Source: a virus. Taken from it: a stretch of DNA of 10,260 bases. The stretch lies in UHGV virus genome UHGV-0142988; one strand, 5' to 3'. This document shows positions 1-10,260 of this stretch, one piece after another; the stretch's first letter is position 1; each line of letters opens with the position of its first letter. A program made the position numbers and the translations under genes. Under the pieces are notes generated by a model that was not told where the DNA came from, ran no database searches, and saw nothing but the letters and a program-made list of their open reading frames with translations.

Positions 1-38
1 CGAGTCTCGTGGGCTTCGGAGATGTGTATAAGAGACAG
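1..38. other. Sequencing adapter remnant (Nextera/Tn5 mosaic end, one-base indel) at contig start; artefact
   Basis: Positions 20-38 read AGATGTGTATAAGAGACAG, the 19-bp Tn5 mosaic end, preceded by GTCTCGTGGGCT(T)CGG, the Nextera read-2 adapter with one extra T. Confidence 0.85.
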
Positions 39-42
39 CTCA

Positions 43-238
43 TGTCCGCCCCACACGGACACTTCCCCAAATTTGTCCGTCCACCACGGACACTCACAGA
101 CACAGATGTCCTCTGTACGCACACAACGGACAAAATAATAGTGCAATATACACAACTATTACTGGAAATCAATCCAATAATTGTGCACATTGCACTATAA
201 AAATCAGTTATTTTAGAACATTATGCTCTTGTGTCCGT
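43..238. repeat. Terminal-region short repeats TGTCCG(T)/ACGGACA: two hairpin-capable inverted pairs (~43-61, ~74-92) plus solo copies (~126-132, ~232-238)
   Basis: Six copies of the 6-7-mer within ~200 bp directly after the adapter; the first two pairs are inverted repeats with 5-7 nt spacers. Confidence 0.6.
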
Positions 239-269
239 GTGTGAGAGACACATACAGGGGTGATGTTTT

Positions 270-283
270 CGAACATGTGTTCT
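270..283. promoter_or_regulatory. Candidate LexA/DinR SOS box (Cheo-box-like, cGAAC-atgt-GTTCt), with an overlapping GTTC-tat-GAAC
   Basis: GAAC-N4-GTTC with 5' flanking C, ~17 bp upstream of the predicted -35. This is the only such site I found in the window. Confidence 0.5.
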
Positions 284-299
284 ATGAACAATATGGACT

Positions 300-328
300 T
301 TGAATAAATCTAAATAATTACATATAAT
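300..328 (+). promoter_or_regulatory. Candidate sigma-A-type promoter for the rightward early operon
   Basis: TTGAAT (-35, ~300-305), 17-bp spacer, TATAAT (-10, ~323-328); ~30 bp upstream of a GAGGTG RBS and the ATG at 359. Confidence 0.5.
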
Positions 329-358
329 AATGTTATCAAATGAAAGAGAGGTGAACAG

Positions 359-508
359 ATGACAGATTACGAAGAAAGCTACAAAAATTATCTTGCATGG
401 CTCACTCCACGTGAGCTATTGCATGAATACAAGATCATGCGTTTACCGTGGCGTTATCGGGAACGAAAATGGATCAAAGAAGAAATAGAAAGTAGGTGTG
501 TGTACTAA
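359..508 (+). CDS. Small hypothetical protein (49 aa; MTDYEESYKNYLAWL...), below the ORF-track length cutoff
   Basis: ATG with GAGGTG RBS ~7 nt upstream; first ORF after the promoter; read by eye. Confidence 0.35.
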   Translation: MTDYEESYKNYLAWLTPRELLHEYKIMRLPWRYRERKWIKEEIESRCVY

Positions 509-602
509 TGTTGGATGCTATATTGTGGTTTGGTTTTGGTGCTATATTAATTTTTCCGTATGGAGTTTGGTGTGGGGCAAAATGGTCAGGAGGATATAAG
601 AA

Positions 603-806
603 ATGAAAAATTATTGTGATATATGTTTTACATGTAATGATGCTGAAGTTTGTCATTCATGTAGCCAGCCAGAGATTTGTTCCGAATTTAAAAAGTGTTT
701 TGATCATAAGCCTTATATAATGTGGGAGAAAATGACAAGTTTTGACGATATCATGAGATGTGTTGAGAAATGGAGGGTGTACAATGAGCAGACCGTTAAA
801 CAGTAA
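603..806 (+). CDS. Small Cys-rich protein (67 aa), possible zinc-ribbon-like
   Basis: AGGAGG RBS ~7 nt upstream of the ATG; CxxCxxC...CxxC spacing in the N-terminal 32 residues (seven Cys). Confidence 0.55.
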   Translation: MKNYCDICFTCNDAEVCHSCSQPEICSEFKKCFDHKPYIMWEKMTSFDDIMRCVEKWRVYNEQTVKQ

Positions 807-1041
807 GAAGTCATGGTATAAGGTATATATCAAAGAATTAAATACACCGAATATCATTAAAAGTCAGTGTAAATATAAATGCGATTATCTATTAGTAAAG
901 GCATACACAGGATCAGTCGCAATGGCAATCGTGCAGGACTACGTTGTCGAGTTTGAAGAAAATTTCCGTCCTGTATACTACAACAAATTGGAGGGAGGTG
1001 TTCCTATTGACAACAAAAAAGTCTTATTTGAAGAAGAGTAA
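784..1041 (+). CDS. Hypothetical protein (86 aa from internal ATG; track ORF begins at 760)
   Basis: GGAGGG RBS ~6 nt upstream of the ATG at 784; overlaps the 3' end of the previous gene; protein-like composition. Confidence 0.45.
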   Translation: MSRPLNSKKSWYKVYIKELNTPNIIKSQCKYKCDYLLVKAYTGSVAMAIVQDYVVEFEENFRPVYYNKLEGGVPIDNKKVLFEEE

Positions 1042-1648
1042 ACCACAAGGTCTTATAAGAACAAAAGACGATTATACGCCGCTTGCTCTCGAGTTAACAT
1101 GGGATATGAAAGACGTTAGAAAAGAGTATTCACGGTTAAGATCAATCTGGCGTAAACGTTATGAAAGATTACTGAAATCTGACTATAAAGATATCAACCT
1201 TGTAACGGATCGACCGATCCAACGTTACAAGCAGTTGAAAGATATAACAAGTGATAGAGAACTCTATCACTTGTTATCTGAACTATCAACTATTATAGGA
1301 TCAGATCGAACTACAGTAACAGGATTGAAAAAACGGGAAAAAGAGCAGATGGAACACATCAACGATGTGTATGGAACAGAGTTAAAAACGCACGAAGATT
1401 TATTAAATTTTGGACGTTTCATGGAACAGTTACGGGATTTTGCATCTGATAGAATATACGATTCTGATTTTGCAGTTGATTTATATTCTGATGGTGAAAA
1501 GCTGAGTACGGGCAAAATGTTAGAGCTATACAAGGAATTTTTGAAAACTGGATCACGTAACATCGAAAAATTGAAATCTGGCATAGCAAAGAAAGAAAAA
1601 GCGAAACGTCAGAAGAGGAAAGCAGGCAAACGTAAACGTAGGAGGTAA
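1007..1648 (+). CDS. Candidate terminal protein (~213 aa if started at TTG 1007; track ORF 944..1648)
   Basis: Directly upstream of, and translationally coupled to, the protein-primed DNA polymerase (its stop lies in the polymerase RBS). Strongly basic C-terminal tail KKEKAKRQKRKAGKRKRRR. GGAGGGAGGTG lies ~6 nt upstream of TTG 1007. Function is from synteny, not homology. Confidence 0.45.
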   Translation: MTTKKSYLKKSKPQGLIRTKDDYTPLALELTWDMKDVRKEYSRLRSIWRKRYERLLKSDYKDINLVTDRPIQRYKQLKDITSDRELYHLLSELSTIIGSDRTTVTGLKKREKEQMEHINDVYGTELKTHEDLLNFGRFMEQLRDFASDRIYDSDFAVDLYSDGEKLSTGKMLELYKEFLKTGSRNIEKLKSGIAKKEKAKRQKRKAGKRKRRR

Positions 1649-1651
1649 CAC

Positions 1652-3733
1652 ATGGAAAATCTGTATACTATTGACACATATAATTATAATAGAATACGGA
1701 ATTTACCATGTTTACATGATACTAGGTCTAACAAAGGAAGTAAAAAAGCAAAAGGTTATAAAAATTGTCTGTGTGCTTTCGATATCGAAACAACTAGATT
1801 GGAAGATATCGAGCAGTCAATAATGTATATCTGGCAGTTTTCAATTCTTTTTCTTGATGATTTACATGTTGATACGATAATTGGAAGAACGTGGACAGAA
1901 TTTGAGTTATTTCTTGATAATCTTATGAATGACGATAACTATGCATATTATATGATTTTTGTTCATAATCTTTCATATGAATTTCAGTTTTTGCGTGGTA
2001 TATATACATTTTCACCGGATGAAGTTTTTGCCATAAAATCACGTAGAATATTGAAATGTGAAATGTTAGAGCGTTTCGAGTTTCGTTGCTCATATTTACA
2101 AACTAATATGTCACTAAATACGTTTACCTCAAAAATGAAAGTAAAACATCAGAAATTATCTGGTGAAAAATTCGATTATAGTAAAAAGCGTTTTCCATGG
2201 ACAGAACTAACCGATTATGAAATAAAGTATAGTACATACGACACGATTGGACTAGTTGAAGCAATGTATAAACGTATGATACTGTCAAATGACAATCTAT
2301 ATACACTACCATTAACGTCAACCGGTTATGTACGTCGTGAAACGAAAAAAGCCATGTATGGTTGGTCACGAAAACACAAGGATATATTTCCCACTATAGA
2401 TGTTTTCGATCTGCTAGAGGAGGCGTTTCGGGGCGGAGATACTCACGCTAACCGTTATTACTCAGGAACCGTGATACGTGCATATGGTAAAAATATTCTA
2501 GGAATCGGTTCATATGATAGGTCATCCTCTTATCCTGACGTTGTGTTGAATTGTGTTTTCCCGATGACACGTTTTGTATATATCGGATCAATAGATGAAT
2601 CTGATATAGATAAGAAACTGGATAGAGGAAAAGCACTCTTATTCCGATGTAAAATAACAGGTATTGAGCAGATCGACAAGTATTACGGATCGCCCTATAT
2701 TTCATATTCAAAATGTAGAAATGTTTCATGTGAAACACTTGACAATGGGCGTATTTTAAGTGCTGACTATATTGAAATAACGCTCACTGATATTGATTAT
2801 GAGATAATGAAACGTGAGTACAAATGGAAACATTTTGAAATAACAGAGTGTTATGAGAGTAAATACGGAGCATTGCCAGAACCGTTGAAAGACATTTTCC
2901 GTAAATATTATACTGACAAAACAGAGTTAAAAGGAATCGTGGAACAGGAACTTTTCTACAACTTGCAAAAGGCTTTGCTTAACGCTGGCTATGGAATGAT
3001 GGTTCAATCACCCGTGAAACAGTCGTTAATATTTACAGAATCGGCAGAAAACATATATACAGTTGATGAAAATGTTTCACGTGAAACATTACTCACTAAA
3101 TATAACAGAACAGCTTTCTTGCCTTATCAATGGGGTGTTTGGGTAACAGCATGGGCACGCCAGCGATTGAAAGAGGGTATAAACATAGTTGGAGATCGTT
3201 ACGTTTACAGCGATACGGATTCAGTAAAATATATAAAAGTAAGAGGTGATAATATTGACGAGTTATTTGATAGATACAATTCTGAGAGAAAAGAGCAAAG
3301 TATCTCCAATTCCGCATACGCAACAGACCGTTATGGCGTTAAACATTATATGGGGGTGTATGAATTCGAGGATACGTATACTGAATTCTCCACCATTGGT
3401 ACAAAAAAATATGTCTATAGAACTAAAGATGGAAAACTACACGCAACAATCGCAGGAGTTAATAAAAAGCTTGCACCGGATGAGTTGGAAGAACATGGAG
3501 GAATTGAAGCTTTCAAAACTGGATTTACCTTTTTACGATCAGGAGGAACTGAAAGCGTGTACAATGACGTTCCTTATGGGGATTACACCGTGGAAAATCA
3601 TGTTTTAAAAATTACACAAAATGTAGTTATCAGACCGTCAACTTACACAATAGGAATAACAGATGAGTACCGTAGGATTTTGGCAGACGCAAGAACATTA
3701 AAAGAATTTAAATATACTTTTGACAAAAATTAA
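1652..3733 (+). CDS. Protein-primed family-B DNA polymerase (693 aa)
   Basis: AGGAGG RBS. Exo I FDIETT, Exo II HNLSYEF, Exo III YSTYDTIGLVEAM, motif A YDRSSSYP (Dx2SLYP-like), motif B KALLNAGYG (Kx3NSxYG-like), motif C YSDTDS, KxY in TIGTKKYVY. Confidence 0.95.
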   Translation: MENLYTIDTYNYNRIRNLPCLHDTRSNKGSKKAKGYKNCLCAFDIETTRLEDIEQSIMYIWQFSILFLDDLHVDTIIGRTWTEFELFLDNLMNDDNYAYYMIFVHNLSYEFQFLRGIYTFSPDEVFAIKSRRILKCEMLERFEFRCSYLQTNMSLNTFTSKMKVKHQKLSGEKFDYSKKRFPWTELTDYEIKYSTYDTIGLVEAMYKRMILSNDNLYTLPLTSTGYVRRETKKAMYGWSRKHKDIFPTIDVFDLLEEAFRGGDTHANRYYSGTVIRAYGKNILGIGSYDRSSSYPDVVLNCVFPMTRFVYIGSIDESDIDKKLDRGKALLFRCKITGIEQIDKYYGSPYISYSKCRNVSCETLDNGRILSADYIEITLTDIDYEIMKREYKWKHFEITECYESKYGALPEPLKDIFRKYYTDKTELKGIVEQELFYNLQKALLNAGYGMMVQSPVKQSLIFTESAENIYTVDENVSRETLLTKYNRTAFLPYQWGVWVTAWARQRLKEGINIVGDRYVYSDTDSVKYIKVRGDNIDELFDRYNSERKEQSISNSAYATDRYGVKHYMGVYEFEDTYTEFSTIGTKKYVYRTKDGKLHATIAGVNKKLAPDELEEHGGIEAFKTGFTFLRSGGTESVYNDVPYGDYTVENHVLKITQNVVIRPSTYTIGITDEYRRILADARTLKEFKYTFDKN

Positions 3734-3781
3734 CATATGTGTTATAATTCATGTAAAGAGATATTACAAGGAGGTGATAAT

Positions 3782-4036
3782 ATGAAAATTACACGTTCAT
3801 TAACAGTTAACAAGATCAACGTTATCTGCTACGATCCTGAGAATAAGTGTGAGTTTGTACAGGAAGTTGGTTTGATCGGAAATCTTACTGATGAGCAGAT
3901 CAGCAAAGAGATTAAAAAAAGAAATTTTGGAATTGTTATTGATTGGGAAAGAACATCAGAAGAAACAAAATTATACGGAATGGATGCCGAAGTGTTTTTA
4001 AAAAATGCAATCATTATTAAAGAAAAGGAGAACTAA
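3782..4036 (+). CDS. Hypothetical small protein (84 aa from internal ATG)
   Basis: AGGAGGTG RBS ~6 nt upstream of the ATG at 3782; sits between polymerase and ATPase genes. Confidence 0.55.
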   Translation: MKITRSLTVNKINVICYDPENKCEFVQEVGLIGNLTDEQISKEIKKRNFGIVIDWERTSEETKLYGMDAEVFLKNAIIIKEKEN

Positions 4037-4039
4037 ATC

Positions 4040-4474
4040 ATGGCAAAGAATTATACTATCATTAAATCATCGGGAAACCTTGATACCTATTCAGAATATG
4101 AACTCATCGAGTCACCTGCAATCGTTTCACTTAAAAACGTAGAAAACAAAGGACTTATCTGTGTTGGAGCGTGGGTGAAATATCTTACCACCGACAATAT
4201 CGGAAATGAAATAACCTGCATTTCAGTGCAGGACGCAAACACAGGAGAGGTATTCTCAGGTCAGTCAGCACCTTTCAGAGAAACATTCGAGGCTGTTACC
4301 GATCGTATTTCTGACATGGACGAAGCTCCAGAAATGTTTTTCATCGAGGTTCTTCATAGACAGTCAAAGTCAGGTCGTGATTATCTTATGTGCGCACTTG
4401 TTTCCCCGGATCGTGCTTTTGCCCGCATGGGATATACTGAAAAGAACATTCCTATGCCAGAGCCCCAGAAATAA
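4040..4474 (+). CDS. Hypothetical protein (144 aa); an SSB or DNA-binding role is only a positional guess
   Basis: AAGGAGA RBS before the ATG at 4040; tightly packed with neighbours; no motif recognised. Confidence 0.6.
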   Translation: MAKNYTIIKSSGNLDTYSEYELIESPAIVSLKNVENKGLICVGAWVKYLTTDNIGNEITCISVQDANTGEVFSGQSAPFRETFEAVTDRISDMDEAPEMFFIEVLHRQSKSGRDYLMCALVSPDRAFARMGYTEKNIPMPEPQK

Positions 4475-4475
4475 T

Positions 4476-5525
4476 ATGTTATCGTTATACGAAAATAGCG
4501 GGTATCTATCGATACCCGCTATTTTAGGATATGGACAAAAGTTTAATTACATCTGGGGTGGCCGTGGTACGGGGAAAACTTACGGTGCTCTTAAATACTG
4601 TATTGAACATAAAAAAATTTTTGCTTATATGCGATCATTGCAAACACAAATTGATATGATTAAAATTCCAGAACTTTCACCTTTTAAAAAATTAAATCGT
4701 GATTTAGGATGGTCAATATATCCGAAAAGTGTCGGGAAAAATATTGCTGTGTATTATAATGCAGAAATTGACGAAAATGGTAAAATAAAATATACTGGAG
4801 ATATACTCGGTTATTCCATAGCGTTAAATACATTTGCCAATTTACGAGGTTTTGATGCATCAGACGTTGAGATAGGAATATATGATGAATTTATCCCCGA
4901 AAAACGTGAACGCAAAGTTGAAAATGCTGGATATGCTTTTAAAAACGCATATGAAACAATGAATCGAAACCGTGAACTTGATGGAATTAATCCGATACAG
5001 TTTTTATTGTTTTCTAATTCTGAAAGTTTATCATGTGATATGTTTATAGAGAATAATTTAATGGAAAAAGTATCGAGCATGGATATTAATAAACAATCTA
5101 TGTCTATTATACGTGATAGAGGTATTGGACTTTTTAACTTGTATGATTCGCCGATTTCTGAAAAGAAAAAAGACACAGCTCTGTATAAAATGTCTGGATC
5201 AGATTCAGCATTTAACAGGATGGCACTAGGAAATGAATTTTATTCCGCTGATTATTCAGGAATTAGAAGCATGAACATTAAAGAACTGATACCACTATGT
5301 AAAATGGACGCTATTACAATATATCAGCACAAGAGAAAAGACTTAATATATGTAACACGGCACAGCTCTGGTACACCGCCAGAGTATTCCAATACAGATA
5401 AGGATGTAAAAGCTTTCAGACGAGATTTTATTTATTTATGGGATATGTATTTATCAAACAAGGTGCTGTTTGAGGATATCACAAGCAAGTCCCTATTTGA
5501 GATTTATTTTAAAAATAAATATTGA
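4476..5525 (+). CDS. P-loop ATPase, phi29 gp16-like DNA encapsidation ATPase candidate (349 aa from the ATG right after the upstream stop)
   Basis: Walker A GGRGTGKT near the N-terminus and Walker B EIGIYDEF about 110 residues later. Size and motif spacing fit phage packaging ATPases of the ASCE/FtsK-HerA class. Confidence 0.75.
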   Translation: MLSLYENSGYLSIPAILGYGQKFNYIWGGRGTGKTYGALKYCIEHKKIFAYMRSLQTQIDMIKIPELSPFKKLNRDLGWSIYPKSVGKNIAVYYNAEIDENGKIKYTGDILGYSIALNTFANLRGFDASDVEIGIYDEFIPEKRERKVENAGYAFKNAYETMNRNRELDGINPIQFLLFSNSESLSCDMFIENNLMEKVSSMDINKQSMSIIRDRGIGLFNLYDSPISEKKKDTALYKMSGSDSAFNRMALGNEFYSADYSGIRSMNIKELIPLCKMDAITIYQHKRKDLIYVTRHSSGTPPEYSNTDKDVKAFRRDFIYLWDMYLSNKVLFEDITSKSLFEIYFKNKY

Positions 5526-5671
5526 TTTTGTGTTTTATATCTGATATTATCTTTAATAGAAAGACAAGTGTTCGTGGCACACGTACAACACGTCGGGAGC
5601 GTGGGATCATAAGAATCCAATGTGCATGAGCATGTACAGCTCAAGAATTTGTAACACTTAATCTTTCATCA

Positions 5672-5708
5672 CATATGCAGAGTGTCAAAGCCTGCATATG
5701 TTTTGTTT
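5672..5708 (+). terminator. Candidate intrinsic terminator after the ATPase operon
   Basis: 9-bp stem CATATGCAG / CTGCATATG with an 11-nt loop, followed by TTTTGTTT. Confidence 0.55.
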
Positions 5709-5754
5709 CACGTGAAACATTTATCACCTTTCTTTAATGTTTCACGTGAAACAT
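5704..5754. promoter_or_regulatory. Tandem palindromic operator-like sites: TGTTTCACGTGAAACA (~5704-5719) and ATGTTTCACGTGAAACAT (~5737-5754)
   Basis: Two perfect 16-18-bp palindromes 33 bp apart, directly upstream of a TATAAT-like element (~5774-5779) and the RBS of the gene at 5791. Confidence 0.6.
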
Positions 5755-5790
5755 GTTATATGTTGTGCTAATATATAATGGAGGTGAAAT

Positions 5791-5988
5791 ATGGACGTTA
5801 ACTCATTATCAACTCTTATCAGTAACATTGGTGTGCCTTGCGCCTGCCTTATTGCGACTTTCTATCTTTGGCAGAAAGAAACGGATTCTCACAAAGAAGA
5901 AATGAAACGCATGACAGACGCACTCAACAACAACACTCAGGCACTTACAAAACTCACAGAACATATCACAGGAAGTGAAAAAAAATGA
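5791..5988 (+). CDS. Small single-pass membrane protein, holin-like (65 aa)
   Basis: GGAGGTG RBS; one hydrophobic segment (LSTLISNIGVPCACLIATFYLW) then a charged C-terminal tail; ATGA overlap with the next gene. Confidence 0.55.
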   Translation: MDVNSLSTLISNIGVPCACLIATFYLWQKETDSHKEEMKRMTDALNNNTQALTKLTEHITGSEKK

Positions 5989-6230
5989 CGATTAACTACA
6001 ACAAAAATATCAGAGGTGTGTATATCGTCGCAACGAACACAGGGCCTCTGATGGTCAGGGCAGAGCCTAGTACAGACGGAACAGTTATCGCAGAAATGCC
6101 GAAAAACACAAAATGCATCTGTCTAGGATGCTATTCTGGAAACTGGTATGCAGTCATTTACGAACATGACAGTATCATTTCCACCGGCTTTTCTCACAAA
6201 AATTATCTCAGGAGGGATTATAAGATATGA
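5985..6230 (+). CDS. Stand-alone SH3b-like cell-wall-binding domain protein (81 aa)
   Basis: Pattern GVYIVATNTGPLMVRAEPSTDGTVIAEMPKNTKCICLG...GNWYAVIYEH...GFSHKNYLRR resembles bacterial SH3 domains; no catalytic domain attached. Confidence 0.6.
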   Translation: MTINYNKNIRGVYIVATNTGPLMVRAEPSTDGTVIAEMPKNTKCICLGCYSGNWYAVIYEHDSIISTGFSHKNYLRRDYKI

Positions 6231-6421
6231 CGTTAGACAACTTAATTACACTCATTTCAGCAGGATTCACGAAAGAAGAGATCCTCACAATGTCAGGTAC
6301 AGTCACCCAGCGTGCCCCACAGCCACAGCCACAGCCACAGCCACAGCCACAGCCACAGCCACAGCCACAGCCACAAAATACAAAGCAGAAATTGCAAAAT
6401 CAAGATCTAAATACAAATTAA
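6227..6421 (+). CDS. Small protein with a (PQ)10 linker-like repeat (64 aa)
   Basis: ATGA overlap with the upstream gene; contains the in-frame hexamer repeat. Confidence 0.5.
   Translation: MTLDNLITLISAGFTKEEILTMSGTVTQRAPQPQPQPQPQPQPQPQPQPQNTKQKLQNQDLNTN
6317..6375. repeat. Tandem hexanucleotide repeat (CCACAG) x ~9.8
   Basis: Perfect tandem copies read directly in the sequence; encodes PQPQ... in the 6227 ORF frame. Confidence 0.95.
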
Positions 6422-6608
6422 GTGATATTTTAATTCGTGTAGAAAAAAATAGCCTTTATTTTTATTTGCGTAAATGATTCCTTTACTTTTAGCACTAAAA
6501 GCAAGAAAACTATAATTTTATAATTTTCTTTGTTTAAGGCCAGTAATGTTTTCGGCGTTTCAATTGTCCTCGACGAAGGCCGCTTCCGCGACCTTATCTA
6601 GCCCGTGC

Positions 6609-6965
6609 TCATTGAGAACGATCAACTACCATGTATGTTGGTTGACACAGGCTGCCGCGTTCCTGTAACCAGTAGTAATCAAGATCCGCAACACGCATAT
6701 CCAACCCCGAATCCACACGATTGATCTGTAACCGCAGCCCTACAGTATCTTTGTACGATAAACCAGATTTAACATTGTACTTGTACTTAACCCCGCTTTC
6801 TTCTTCAAAAGATTTGAGATAAGGGGGGATTTGCTTCTGAATTTCTTTCAAACAAATAACTTCCCCATCAATTACGAACGGCTTTTCAGTTTTACCGTCA
6901 GGAATAGTAGCCGCAATTGTGGTTAATGGAACTATCGACAACAGTACTGATAATGCTCTTTTCAT
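6609..6965 (-). CDS. Secreted small protein with N-terminal signal peptide (118 aa from the MKRALS start)
   Basis: AAGGGGA RBS before the internal ATG; MKRALSVLLSIVPLTTIAA is signal-peptide-like with no lipobox Cys; ~20 nt downstream of the partner gene. Confidence 0.6.
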   Translation of the reverse strand: MKRALSVLLSIVPLTTIAATIPDGKTEKPFVIDGEVICLKEIQKQIPPYLKSFEEESGVKYKYNVKSGLSYKDTVGLRLQINRVDSGLDMRVADLDYYWLQERGSLCQPTYMVVDRSQ

Positions 6966-6987
6966 CTGTTCTTCCCCTTGAATATAA

Positions 6988-7599
6988 TCATTGTTTAGAA
7001 CAAATTTGTGTAATGGTTGCATTATGGTTAAATTCAACATCAATTACTTTTATAGTATTATCATTAAGTACAGATACAAAATAATTACTTGACGAATTTC
7101 CGTACTTCCTTGAACCATCTGCTGCAATCTTGTTGAATTTAGCAGTATACACACTATCTTTATCGCCGGGAATTGGCATTCGACTGATTAATTCATTATC
7201 GGAAATAGTATAATAAATTAAAATTCCTTTATCTGAATAGTAACCTGAATCGCTTTTTGTTCCCTGTCGAGTTTGTATTATTGCATCGAACTTATCGCAT
7301 TTATAAACATTGGTTTTGGCCTTTTCAGTACTGGTAGACGTTGAAGCCTTTACATCAGTACTTTTATCTTGTGAAACAACCCCGGAACCGATACCTACCG
7401 AAACGACAAAGACAATAAAACTCATGCCTAACGACGTAATCAAAGTACGGAACTTTCCCCGACCTTTATTTCTGGAATAGTTTGAAACTTTCCTGAAAGT
7501 AAGTACTGCAAGGATCACACAAATGATGAAAACGACAAGCCCGGCCATAAAATCCCTCAAACGTTGTGTATCAAAGGCAATCATAGTATCACTTCGCAA
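6988..7599 (-). CDS. Two-TM membrane protein with Ser/Thr-rich ~130-aa extracytoplasmic domain (203 aa, or 198 aa from ATG 7584)
   Basis: Hydrophobic segments AGLVVFIICVILAVLTF and LITSLGMSFIVFVVSVGIGSGVV separated by a basic loop; TTG start in the track with an in-frame ATG 5 codons later. Confidence 0.6.
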   Translation of the reverse strand: MRSDTMIAFDTQRLRDFMAGLVVFIICVILAVLTFRKVSNYSRNKGRGKFRTLITSLGMSFIVFVVSVGIGSGVVSQDKSTDVKASTSTSTEKAKTNVYKCDKFDAIIQTRQGTKSDSGYYSDKGILIYYTISDNELISRMPIPGDKDSVYTAKFNKIAADGSRKYGNSSSNYFVSVLNDNTIKVIDVEFNHNATITQICSKQ

Positions 7600-7601
7600 T
7601 A

Positions 7602-7624
7602 CATTGATCGATTAAAGCGATCAA
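7602..7624. promoter_or_regulatory. Palindrome ATTGATCG-attaaag-CGATCAAT in a divergent control region (7600-7700) that also carries three ATCAAT copies
   Basis: 8-bp inverted repeat just upstream of the leftward gene start and upstream of the rightward leader. Confidence 0.35.
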
Positions 7625-7699
7625 TTTTTGATTTTCGATCGGTTAAATCTATCAATATCTATTAATTGAAGACAAATCAATAGGTAAAAACGATCAGAC

Positions 7700-8100
7700 G
7701 TTGGTCAGTACTTCGGAAACACCAGAAGTATGGTTTGGGTCTGCCGTTTAAACGCCCTCAGAAAACCGCTAAGGTCTCTTTATCGCATATGGCTTGGGAT
7801 TTCAGCCTTTGGCTAAAATCGCTTTCAGGGGGGCTTCTTGTGCGTTTTGTCGGGAACACCATCATGGAGGGGGATAAATCGGATCGAAGTCGCTTCGCTC
7901 TGGTCAGTACTGGAAGGGTTAGCTTATCTGGCGAGGGAAGATGAATTGCCAGGCTTCATGAAGATGGTTGGTTTTGTGGACAAGAAGAACTGCCGTTTTG
8001 AGTATTCCCCCTCACACCCAACAAACCTACCCATTAGCAAGGGGGAGTACTTTCTCGTAGTATACAGAACGAATAAATTCTTTGTATACTTCCGTTTTAT
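7700..8100 (+). ncRNA. Candidate structured 5' leader / cis-regulatory RNA (class unassigned)
   Basis: ~400 nt without a convincing ORF, visibly more GC than flanks. 12-bp stem (~8001-8012 / 8040-8051, one G-U pair) with a C/A-rich 27-nt loop, then an AT-rich hairpin (~8059-8090) plus U-tract just before the downstream start. The 11-mer TGGTCAGTACT occurs twice (~7703, ~7901). Confidence 0.35.
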
Positions 8101-8111
8101 CCTAAAGCGAT

Positions 8112-8801
8112 TTGATTATGGACGAGAATAATAAAGAAGTTATTGAAATAAGACCAGAAGATAAGGACTTTTTCGCAGAATTTATTGATTGTGAAGGTCC
8201 AATTATCCAAGATTCAATTGATCATAAAAAAATCACCCTCGCACTTGATAAAGCCCACGACATAAGAAAGTTTGAAATAGATCTCTATTGGAAGCGTGCT
8301 ACATACTTCTTCGCATTCTTCACTGTAATAACAGCTGCATTTGGTTATTTGTTCACCCATGACAACTATACTTTCTTAGCCCCTGCACTTGCGATCATTG
8401 GTTCTGTTTTTGCTTTATGTTTTTGTTATGTGAATATCGGTAGTAAGTATTGGCAAGAAAACTGGGAGTTTATAATTGATAAAATTGAATATTATGTCAC
8501 AGGAAACCTTTATAAACTTTTCTTCTTCGAAAACCATAGAACCAAACGCCCATCAGTCACTAAGATTAATATATTTCTAAGCAAGCTAATTATAGCTACA
8601 TGGTACGCTTGCTTTATACTTTCCATGCACCAGATATGGAATCAAAGCATGGTATTAAATGTCTCTTATATTATCCTTACCATATATAGCACTGGAACGA
8701 CATTATATTACTGCGATAAAACTGTTGCAGACATATCGAACAATGATAAAGAATCACCACGATTCTTTAGATTCAGAAATCCTAATTACATAAAATCATA
8801 A
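8112..8801 (+). CDS. Multi-pass (about 4 TM) membrane protein with ~60-aa soluble N-terminal domain (229 aa; probable ATG at 8118)
   Basis: Four hydrophobic segments (ATYFFAFFTVITAAFGYLF; FLAPALAIIGSVFALCFCYVNI; INIFLSKLIIATWYACFILSMH; MVLNVSYIILTIYSTGTTLYY); weak RBS. Confidence 0.65.
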   Translation: MIMDENNKEVIEIRPEDKDFFAEFIDCEGPIIQDSIDHKKITLALDKAHDIRKFEIDLYWKRATYFFAFFTVITAAFGYLFTHDNYTFLAPALAIIGSVFALCFCYVNIGSKYWQENWEFIIDKIEYYVTGNLYKLFFFENHRTKRPSVTKINIFLSKLIIATWYACFILSMHQIWNQSMVLNVSYIILTIYSTGTTLYYCDKTVADISNNDKESPRFFRFRNPNYIKS

Positions 8802-8805
8802 ACAT

Positions 8806-8824
8806 GGGGGCATTTGATGCCCCT
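8806..8824 (+). terminator. Candidate terminator hairpin GGGGCAT-ttg-ATGCCCC just after the stop codon
   Basis: Perfect 7-bp GC-rich stem with 3-nt loop; the downstream U-tract is weak on plus and better on the minus strand. Confidence 0.45.
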
Positions 8825-9065
8825 TGTAAATTGATAATCCGACCTAAAAACACTTTGAGTACTTCATTTGTCAGTACTGTTATCTGTTTGAGCGAAAGCG
8901 AGTAACGGCTTTGGCGTGCTTTCGAGTACTGCGAGAAAAACGCAAAGTTACGATCTGATATTTGGTTTTTATAGAGACTAACAAGCAAAGCGAAGTTAGG
9001 CTCTTTAGATACTGAATATCAGTAAGGCTAATACATTCAAAATATCAGGTGAAAGGCAATATTAT

Positions 9066-9194
9066 ATTAAGTTACGGTTATTCACCCCACTGCATAAAAC
9101 AAGAATAACCTACTGATTTTACGGACTTTTATTTGAATAATAATTCACTAATAATCATGATAACCGTATTTCTTAGTTTTAAGTTACGGTTATA
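9066..9194. repeat. 15-bp direct repeat TTAAGTTACGGTTAT (~9067-9081 and ~9179-9193) with an inverted partial copy ATAACCGTA (~9161-9169)
   Basis: Read directly; lies in a convergent intergenic region abutting the 3' end of the gene at 9202. Confidence 0.7.
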
Positions 9195-9201
9195 GGTACG
9201 A

Positions 9202-9669
9202 TTAAACAATGGTTCGTAGATATGCAATCAGATCTTTCGCTGAGGCATTACTGTTCAATAATTCCTGTACTGCGTTCTTCTGTTCGTCGGTTAATGGCTT
9301 ACCAGGCAATGCTTTCTTTAGTCCACATAGCGTACCACCTTCTTCTACAAACTTATCCAATGCTTTAGCAACTGCGGTACAGGCTAATTTGTACTTCTCG
9401 ATAGATGATTCACTTGCTGCAAATTTCTTCATCTGATCTGAACGGGTTAAGGTAAGATAATACTTAACCTGTACTTTTGAAAGCTCTGTAGCGTGTTTGA
9501 CGATGTAGAAGACATCTTTAACAGGTAACTTGTACTTTCCCAATGATTTACACTCTTGAATCGTCTGGTTAATTATTAGAGTTGCTTCTGATGTTAGGCC
9601 ACTGTAAGTAACACGTTTTAGTGCTTCTTCTAACTTTTTATTGTTATAAATCCTTTCTTTTTTTGCCAT
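9202..9669 (-). CDS. Hypothetical protein (155 aa)
   Basis: Clean ORF with ATG start; protein-like composition; no motif recognised. Confidence 0.6.
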   Translation of the reverse strand: MAKKERIYNNKKLEEALKRVTYSGLTSEATLIINQTIQECKSLGKYKLPVKDVFYIVKHATELSKVQVKYYLTLTRSDQMKKFAASESSIEKYKLACTAVAKALDKFVEEGGTLCGLKKALPGKPLTDEQKNAVQELLNSNASAKDLIAYLRTIV

Positions 9670-9759
9670 GATAAATACCCCTATGGAAGATGTTAATTAA
9701 TATTGGCCTGATGTATTCCTAATACTCAGGCTTTTTATTTAAGAAGAAAATGGGTGGGG

Positions 9760-10026
9760 TTATACTCCACGTACCTTCTTGAACCATTCACGATACTCTG
9801 GCACTTTATTTTTGCGTAAATTGCTAATGAAATCTTGATCGCAATTAACTTTAAGTAAATTACAAATCCTAGCACTTGTCATATCACTTAGTAGGATATT
9901 CTCGTACTGAGAGAATGTTAGTTGAATGAAATTAACCTTTTCTTTCTTTCGAACTGATTTGTTCAATGACTTCCTATTAGTCCTGATTTTATTTTTTGTT
10001 TTTATTTTACCGTTTTTCTTTGACAT
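9760..10026 (-). CDS. Small basic protein with possible C-terminal helix-turn-helix (88 aa)
   Basis: GGAGTG RBS before the ATG; very basic N-terminus (KKNGKIKTKNKIRTNRK) followed by an HTH-like segment. Confidence 0.55.
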   Translation of the reverse strand: MSKKNGKIKTKNKIRTNRKSLNKSVRKKEKVNFIQLTFSQYENILLSDMTSARICNLLKVNCDQDFISNLRKNKVPEYREWFKKVRGV

Positions 10027-10260
10027 TTTGTCACTCCTCTAAATTAAAATTCATCTCATGGTTAACCTCCTACGGCTGTTGTTTATGTTCGATTGGCTAT
10101 ATGTTAACGGGCAAAATTGCCCCAATCAAGGAATAGTTGCAACTTTTTCTTGACAAGATCATTACTATTCAAGTCAAAAAATCATATATCATTTAGGCAC
10201 TATCTTTGGGTAATGACTCCAACTTATTGATAGTGTTTTATGTTCAGATAATGCCCGATG

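Follow-up and report, generated by a model that had tools for sequence, protein, structure and literature searches.

A Nextera adapter probably joined near the left end of a linear phi29-like phage genome in a chimeric metagenome contig

Bacteriophage phi29 uses reiterated terminal bases for sliding-back initiation. The terminal hexamer of phi29 is AAAGTA, and the Amedibacillus, astrithr and Phanie phages are treated as phi29-related in a recent review (PMC11476376). In the linear, 11-12 kb records of Amedibacillus phage AD70P3 (Guelinviridae), Salmonella phage astrithr and Acinetobacter phage Phanie (Astrithrvirus), an open reading frame (ORF) of ~200 aa is followed by the genes for the DNA polymerase and the packaging ATPase, in the same order as in the DNA described here, and this block starts 1-2 kb from one end; in the record of Clostridium phage HM2, that region is largely unannotated. 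These isolated phi29-related phages are only distantly related to the phage analyzed here, the lineage of which is known from gut metagenome contigs alone.

The DNA in question is a stretch of 10,260 nucleotides from the virus genome UHGV-0142988 (hereinafter, the window). An exact-protein look-up identified it as the complete contig NODE_2955_length_10260_cov_14.568349 of the ENA metagenome assembly ERZ1755413. Given that the window is a whole contig, position 1 is a contig end, which bears out the statement to that effect in an earlier note made from the letters of this DNA. The best explanation for the whole set of observations, to which we assign a probability of roughly 0.87, is that bases 1-38 are synthetic and were joined by Tn5 near the end of the linear genome of a phi29-like podophage. 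The native DNA from base 39 to about 6316 is identifiable, by sequence comparison, as the left arm of this uncultivated phage. The assignment of the terminus is drawn from comparative data rather than from the adapter, and it concerns the first ~6.3 kb of the contig alone.

The kinship with phi29 is apparent in the gene for a phi29-type protein-primed family-B DNA polymerase (1652-3733, plus strand). A tblastn search revealed 33-35% identity over more than 85% of the length with the polymerases of HM2, AD70P2/P3, astrithr and Phanie. Used alone as the query, the window polymerase had no match in Pfam, PHROGs, NCBIfam or PDB. A profile that combines it with 4 homologues matched the phi29 DNA polymerase (PDB 1xhx, E = 1.1e-15) as well as seven further PDB entries of the same enzyme; PF03175 is matched by four of the five members of the polymerase alignment, and the translated window gene displays the motifs DIETT, SSSYP, KALLNAGYG and YSDTDS. 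Immediately 5' of the polymerase gene lies an ORF of ~200 aa (998-1648, plus strand), for which Pfam, PHROGs and further searches yielded no family match and no annotated homologue. This ORF is a candidate terminal protein by position, in synteny with AD70P3, astrithr and Phanie. Downstream, the window encodes a small protein with a match to a phage dsDNA-binding family (3737-4036, plus strand; phrog_6370, E = 1.5e-5) and a phi29 Gp16-type DNA encapsidation ATPase (4476-5525, plus strand; PF05894 with 34.5 bits against a cut-off of 25; phrog_2150, E = 4e-20).

Thus, the polymerase (1xhx) and the Gp16 ATPase are shared with phi29, as is, in the relatives, the small linear genome with inverted terminal repeats (ITRs). 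In contrast to phi29, the window contains neither an Rfam pRNA match nor a terminal protein that is recognisable from its sequence. No Rfam family reached its threshold anywhere in the window, and no pRNA match with E <= 1 was detected in 1-1000, which is weak negative evidence given that pRNAs diverge quickly. In GenBank, the lineage is represented by unannotated 'Bacteriophage sp.' entries such as MT837693, with 80% polymerase identity; it is abundant in IMG/VR.

Complete relatives of 13.6-14.3 kb, the polymerases of which are 88-97% identical, carry ITRs of ~250-315 bp at both ends, as opposed to the 6 bp ITR of phi29. The far ends of these genomes match the window from 39 to ~276-300. Accordingly aligned with the relatives' ITRs, the segment 39-280 (plus strand) is predicted to be the left ITR of a phi29-like phage, without its first ~8 nt (GCG[A/T]TTAT). 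The ITR of this particular genome is deduced from the relatives, as the window lacks the right arm and carries Escherichia coli DNA in its place. The terminus would be of a known kind, namely that of a phi29-like linear genome with ITRs.

To place the junction, contig ends were aligned against the longest version of the end (GCGATTATCTCATGTCCGCCCC...) as the reference. The close relatives and the window together provided 33 distinct ends, all of which start at consensus positions 1-33. The most common start is position 1 (6 of the 33 ends, GCG[A/T]TTATC), and the terminal sequence common to the relatives' ends most often begins GCG(A/T)TTATCTCATG. None of these 33 ends has native sequence upstream of position 1, where the extra bases consist solely of adapters, a single stray T and a single GC-rich chimera. 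Two exceptions have sequence beyond consensus position 1. In contig L178, 31 extra nt at both ends are the reverse complement of the hairpin loop inside the contig's own ITR, suggestive of a fold-back artefact; in contig L063, the last 45 nt match no other locus, and this extra sequence looks like an artefact as well. A scan of ENA/JGI metagenomes added 11 further contigs; the motif is located at most 43 nt from the contig end in all 11, and the start falls at positions 1-11 in 10. Altogether, ~45 independent ends, which come from various samples and were produced by various assemblers, lie no more than 33 nt apart, most of them within 12 nt.

The strongest of the alternatives, albeit an improbable one, is that the adapter marks an arbitrary assembly break in a circular or circularly permuted genome, with no end nearby. 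Breaks of this kind do occur: in the related contig L117, the adapter Tn5ME-A joins sequence ~320 nt from the genome end, and other assemblies of the phage itself break at window positions 164 and ~253, with none found by exact-protein look-ups to reach further upstream than the window. Yet an arbitrary break is hard to reconcile with ~45 independent ends that stop within the same 33 nt, none of them with new native sequence, with the presence of the same sequence, inverted, at the other end of complete relatives, and with a gene content that is that of linear protein-primed phages. We consider this alternative largely refuted already.

Returning to the linear genome with an end close to the junction, window base 39 corresponds to consensus position 9. 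It could be argued that the junction is the exact physical end, such that the genome begins CTCATGTCCG, and contig L172 indeed starts at the same consensus position (CTTATG...). This is very unlikely, considering that the ends of at least 19 distinct relatives reach up to 8 nt further, into the conserved GCG(A/T)TTAT, and that Tn5 is unable to insert at the very end of a duplex, so that Nextera data lose termini. The adapter junction therefore is best placed ~8 nt, give or take a few, inside the real end of the linear genome. The earlier note had called the start of the contig consistent with a physical terminus and had named native sequence upstream of the adapter as the observation that would speak against it. 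The relatives do continue upstream, by at most 8 nt, which touches the proposal only trivially, and the ~45 related ends, in placing the junction 8 nt inside, strengthen it.

The exact first base of the genome can be inferred to within a few nucleotides. The longest ends of this lineage start GCG(A/T)TT (in full, GCG(A/T)TTAT) without obvious reiteration of terminal bases, an apparent difference from phi29, whereas more distant sister lineages of this phage begin AAAGTA, as phi29 does (AAAGTATA... / AAAGTATATACATGTCCG), with the first palindrome (see below) likewise at nt 13. The lack of terminal reiteration in the GCG start implies that a few more bases may be missing from all the available ends. 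The terminal motif had no match in 185,579 species-representative genomes, and accordingly, this search provided no clue to the host and no integrated copy.

Another feature that sets the window apart from phi29 is the presence of phased palindromes within the ITR. A motif scan located the palindrome TGTCCG-N7-CGGACA twice, at 43-61 and at 74-92, with a spacing of 31 nt, and further TGTCCG/CGGACA half-sites at 127-132 and 232-237; the hexamer occurs six times in the 10.26 kb window, each time within the ITR, between 43 and 237. A scan of IMG/VR for the motif yielded 107 stretches, in 59 of which the motif is located at most 100 nt from an end and in the same outward orientation; in 18 stretches it is present at both ends, and the median length of the contigs with the motif at an end is 13.3 kb. 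The palindromes have variable 7-nt spacers and recur with a period of ~31-33 nt in several lineages (L011, L029, L032, L043 and others), and in several lineages the first palindrome lies 12 nt from the genome end. TGTCCG/CGGACA sites were not found in the terminal sequences of AD70P3, astrithr, Phanie and HM2. We tentatively suggest, as a possibility with rather low odds, that the palindrome array is an undescribed origin-recognition element for protein-primed replication in a widespread, uncharacterised gut phi29-like lineage, which would be bound by a dimeric phage protein, for instance a p6-like dsDNA-binding protein or the complex of terminal protein and polymerase.

The ITR also contains a long imperfect hairpin, or palindrome (138-198), with a predicted DNA fold of -13.3 kcal/mol (z = -5.8 compared to shuffles), which gives rise to spurious, sub-threshold, miRNA-like Rfam matches. 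The phased palindrome array and this hairpin may both be previously undescribed. Other assemblies of the phage tend to break at this hairpin; one of them, contig L003, starts at window position 164.

Beyond the left arm, the contig changes its identity. Matches to viral loci cover window positions 39-6375, with none beyond 6375, and the segment 6317-10207 shows 99.9% identity to 31 complete E. coli chromosomes. The chimeric junction is a perfect (CCACAG)n tract of 59 nt (6317-6375, plus strand), as delineated by the phage and E. coli matches, and the segment 6376-10208 (plus strand) is assigned, from the same 99.9% identity to 31 chromosomes, to an E. coli chromosomal island rather than to the phage. 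In the phage relatives, the tract encodes the (PQ)n of a protein of 150-180 aa that continues PQ...FYPQNYQQ...; in E. coli, the tract has a length of 88 nt and specifies the C-terminal (PQ)n of a hypothetical protein, the last residues of which are NTKQKLQNQDLNTN. The window ORF 6227-6421 is a hybrid of the two, with the N-terminus of the phage protein and the C-terminus of the E. coli protein (the NTKQKLQNQDLNTN tail). L003, a contig of the same phage that was assembled independently with MEGAHIT, breaks off within the (CCACAG)n tract. The contig is thus evidently an assembly chimera of phage and E. coli, with the switch in a repeat common to both. The length of 59 nt would correspond to the minimal walk through a period-6 graph loop at k = 55, with this value of k deduced from the SPAdes-style name of the contig.

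Among the homologues of ORF 6227-6421 (L028, L056, L136, L100, L023, L070 and L111), the number of (PQ)n/(PH)n units and the CAG/CAT composition vary widely. To judge from these variants, the repeat is a hypervariable coding microsatellite among otherwise close genomes.

The opposite view is that there is no chimera and the phage arm is truly joined to the E. coli island by recombination via the (PQ)n microsatellite, in which case the left end would be no virion terminus. In its favour, the phage and the E. coli part alike have a low G+C content. We nonetheless regard a true junction as highly improbable, because the switch falls exactly in a perfect repeat common to both partners, the length of which fits the k = 55 loop (k being itself deduced); because more than 40 phage relatives continue from this point with phage sequence and 31 E. 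coli genomes continue with an E. coli gene upstream, at >=99% identity; because the first 3 kb of the window match no complete E. coli genome; and because the contig obtained for this phage in an independent assembly breaks off in the repeat. Read literally, the contig analyzed here would point to a false host link, or to an exchange of genes between a phi29-like gut phage and E. coli, and neither should be inferred from it.

At the far end of the contig, the last 52 or so nucleotides (10209-10260, plus strand) are the terminal inverted repeat region of IS1, with 96-100% identity to the IS1 copies that are annotated in phage P1, SfIV and others, and this terminal segment is present in 4960 of the 5426 E. 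coli genomes. The IS1 end is a typical repeat-induced break. The possibility that the whole contig is E. coli DNA, prompted by this IS1 end, was ruled out: a megablast search with window 1-3000 against 5,426 complete E. coli genomes produced no match, and the E. coli part is confined to 6317-10260.

Several observations pertain to the E. coli side itself. The E. coli genomes that match the adjacent island have no IS1 at that spot within the aligned stretch. The segment 6609-10026 (L001) is a low-G+C island of hypothetical genes, and in E. coli strain XJ34 the matching island adjoins ffs and an integrase gene. ORF 8112-8801 encodes a membrane protein of the 8xMP/RipA family (PF24838, E = 3e-28), the sole family identified in a Pfam scan of the E. 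coli-side ORFs and one with no bearing on the adapter. A PADLOC search with the E. coli-side ORFs found no meaningful match to a defence system, with a single marginal one (E = 0.009).

We now turn to the first 38 letters of the window, cgaGTCTCGTGGGCTtCGGAGATGTGTATAAGAGACAG, which are followed by CTCATGTCCGCC..., as read directly from the sequence. The 19-nt Tn5 mosaic end AGATGTGTATAAGAGACAG matches window 20-38 (plus strand) exactly, with 0 mismatches; there is no second match on either strand of the window with up to 3 mismatches allowed, and the mosaic end was found in none of 200 dinucleotide-preserving shuffles. The Nextera oligo Tn5ME-B (34 nt) reads 5'-GTCTCGTGGGCTCGGAGATGTGTATAAGAGACAG-3' (Picelli et al. 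2014, PMC4248319). An ungapped search for it with up to 3 mismatches retrieved nothing from the window, and with a single inserted base it matches window 4-38 (GGGCT[T]CGG) and none of the shuffles. Compared to the published oligo (PMC4248319), the window contains all 34 bases in the right order, without a mismatch in the mosaic end, and the 3' end of the adapter abuts the insert, as it does after Tn5 strand transfer; the difference is the extra T in GGGCT[T]CGG. The Read-2 primer part of Tn5ME-B (GTCTCGTGGGCT[T]CGG; PMC4248319) occupies 4-19 (plus strand), immediately before the mosaic end, and comprises the 15 nt GTCTCGTGGGCTCGG that are specific to Illumina, with one inserted T. The one-base insertion suggests thin or low-quality read support.

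Bases 1-3 (CGA, plus strand) fall outside the Tn5ME-B oligo and are missing from the related genomes. The Nextera PCR primer has the layout P7-i7-GTCTCGTGGGCTCGG, with the i7 index directly 5' of GTCTCGTGGGCTCGG. From this design, CGA is probably the last 3 nt of an i7 index. Compared to a full Nextera adapter, the window thus would retain just 3 nt of the presumed index and no P7.

The boundary at 38/39 is exact. The best-matching contigs of related phages align from window base 39; the base that precedes CTCATG is a T in the related contigs as opposed to the G of the adapter in the window, and the sole match to window 6-38 among the related contigs is the adapter carried by one of them, L067. 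Bases 1-38 are therefore a synthetic laboratory artefact, namely a P7-side Nextera adapter, and part of no genome. The alternative that this stretch of 38 nt is native and represents a natural Tn5/IS50 end of some organism has virtually nothing to recommend it beyond the derivation of the mosaic end from IS50 ends, given that the mosaic end is a sequence engineered to be hyperactive (PMC4248319), that the Illumina-specific GTCTCGTGGGCTCGG precedes it, and that the 38 nt stand at the very first bases of the contig and are absent from every homologous genome. The claim in the earlier note that a Tn5 mosaic end and a Nextera adapter should be trimmed from this end accordingly holds, with the exact match at 20-38 and Tn5ME-B at 4-38. 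Its extent of 1-38 needs refinement: the adapter is present, but the oligo proper spans 4-38, with a 1-nt insertion and with CGA on its 5' side.

Adapters were detected at the ends of related contigs as well. L067 (IMG/VR) carries Nextera Tn5ME-A at 1-34, joined at consensus position 11; L065 (IMG/VR) carries Tn5ME-A with the i5 index TAGATCGC at both ends; and L095 (IMG/VR) carries the TruSeq sequence GCTCTTCCGATCT at position 3, with the adapter of L095 and L152 occupying 1-13. In L067, L065 and L095, all the adapters lie within ~20 nt of the same genome end as that of the window; compared with the window, either the side or the kit of the adapter differs, and the junctions differ by a few bases. 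Contig L117 has Tn5ME-A at 1-44, and here the adapter is joined where the ITR gives way to unique sequence, ~320 nt inside the genome. The notion that an adapter alone marks a terminus was rejected on account of this ~320 nt offset. The L117 case implies that an adapter shows where no further path was available to the assembler, which need not be a terminus. For linear genomes, adapter-tagged contig ends thus are a useful but insufficient pointer to termini.

A plausible route of the adapter into the assembly can be proposed. The phage would have a linear genome of ~14 kb that is bounded by ITRs of ~250-315 bp, with each 5' end presumably bearing a terminal protein. During library preparation, the Tn5 transposase would have attached the adapter to a phage DNA strand at its 5' end, and the plus strand of the window shows such a product, with the adapter joined directly to native DNA at 38/39. 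Outward reads from short inserts would then have run past the junction into the adapter, presumably by read-through, and so carried it into the assembly. Inside a genome, the assembler would clip adapter tips, preferring the genomic path; here, the tip would have been kept because there was no competing path at the true end, ~8 nt further out. Tn5 requires duplex DNA to either side of its 9-bp staggered cut, and two insertions are needed to generate a library fragment. That Tn5 cannot tag the outermost bases would explain why GCG(A/T)TTAT is missing from the window. Nextera data have been reported to lose phage termini (PhageTerm paper, PMC5557969).

The adapter has left a trace in the deposited record. 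In the ENA record, a gene for a 65-aa protein is called at 3-200, with the start inside the adapter, so that its product begins with adapter-encoded residues (SLVGFGDVYKRQ...). This gene call is a path for adapter-derived peptides into protein databases. The main value of the present analysis, then, lies in quality control: the adapter should be trimmed and the contig split at 6317-6375. For the phage itself, the adapter junction taken together with the comparative data would fix the left end of an uncultivated linear genome to within ~8 nt.
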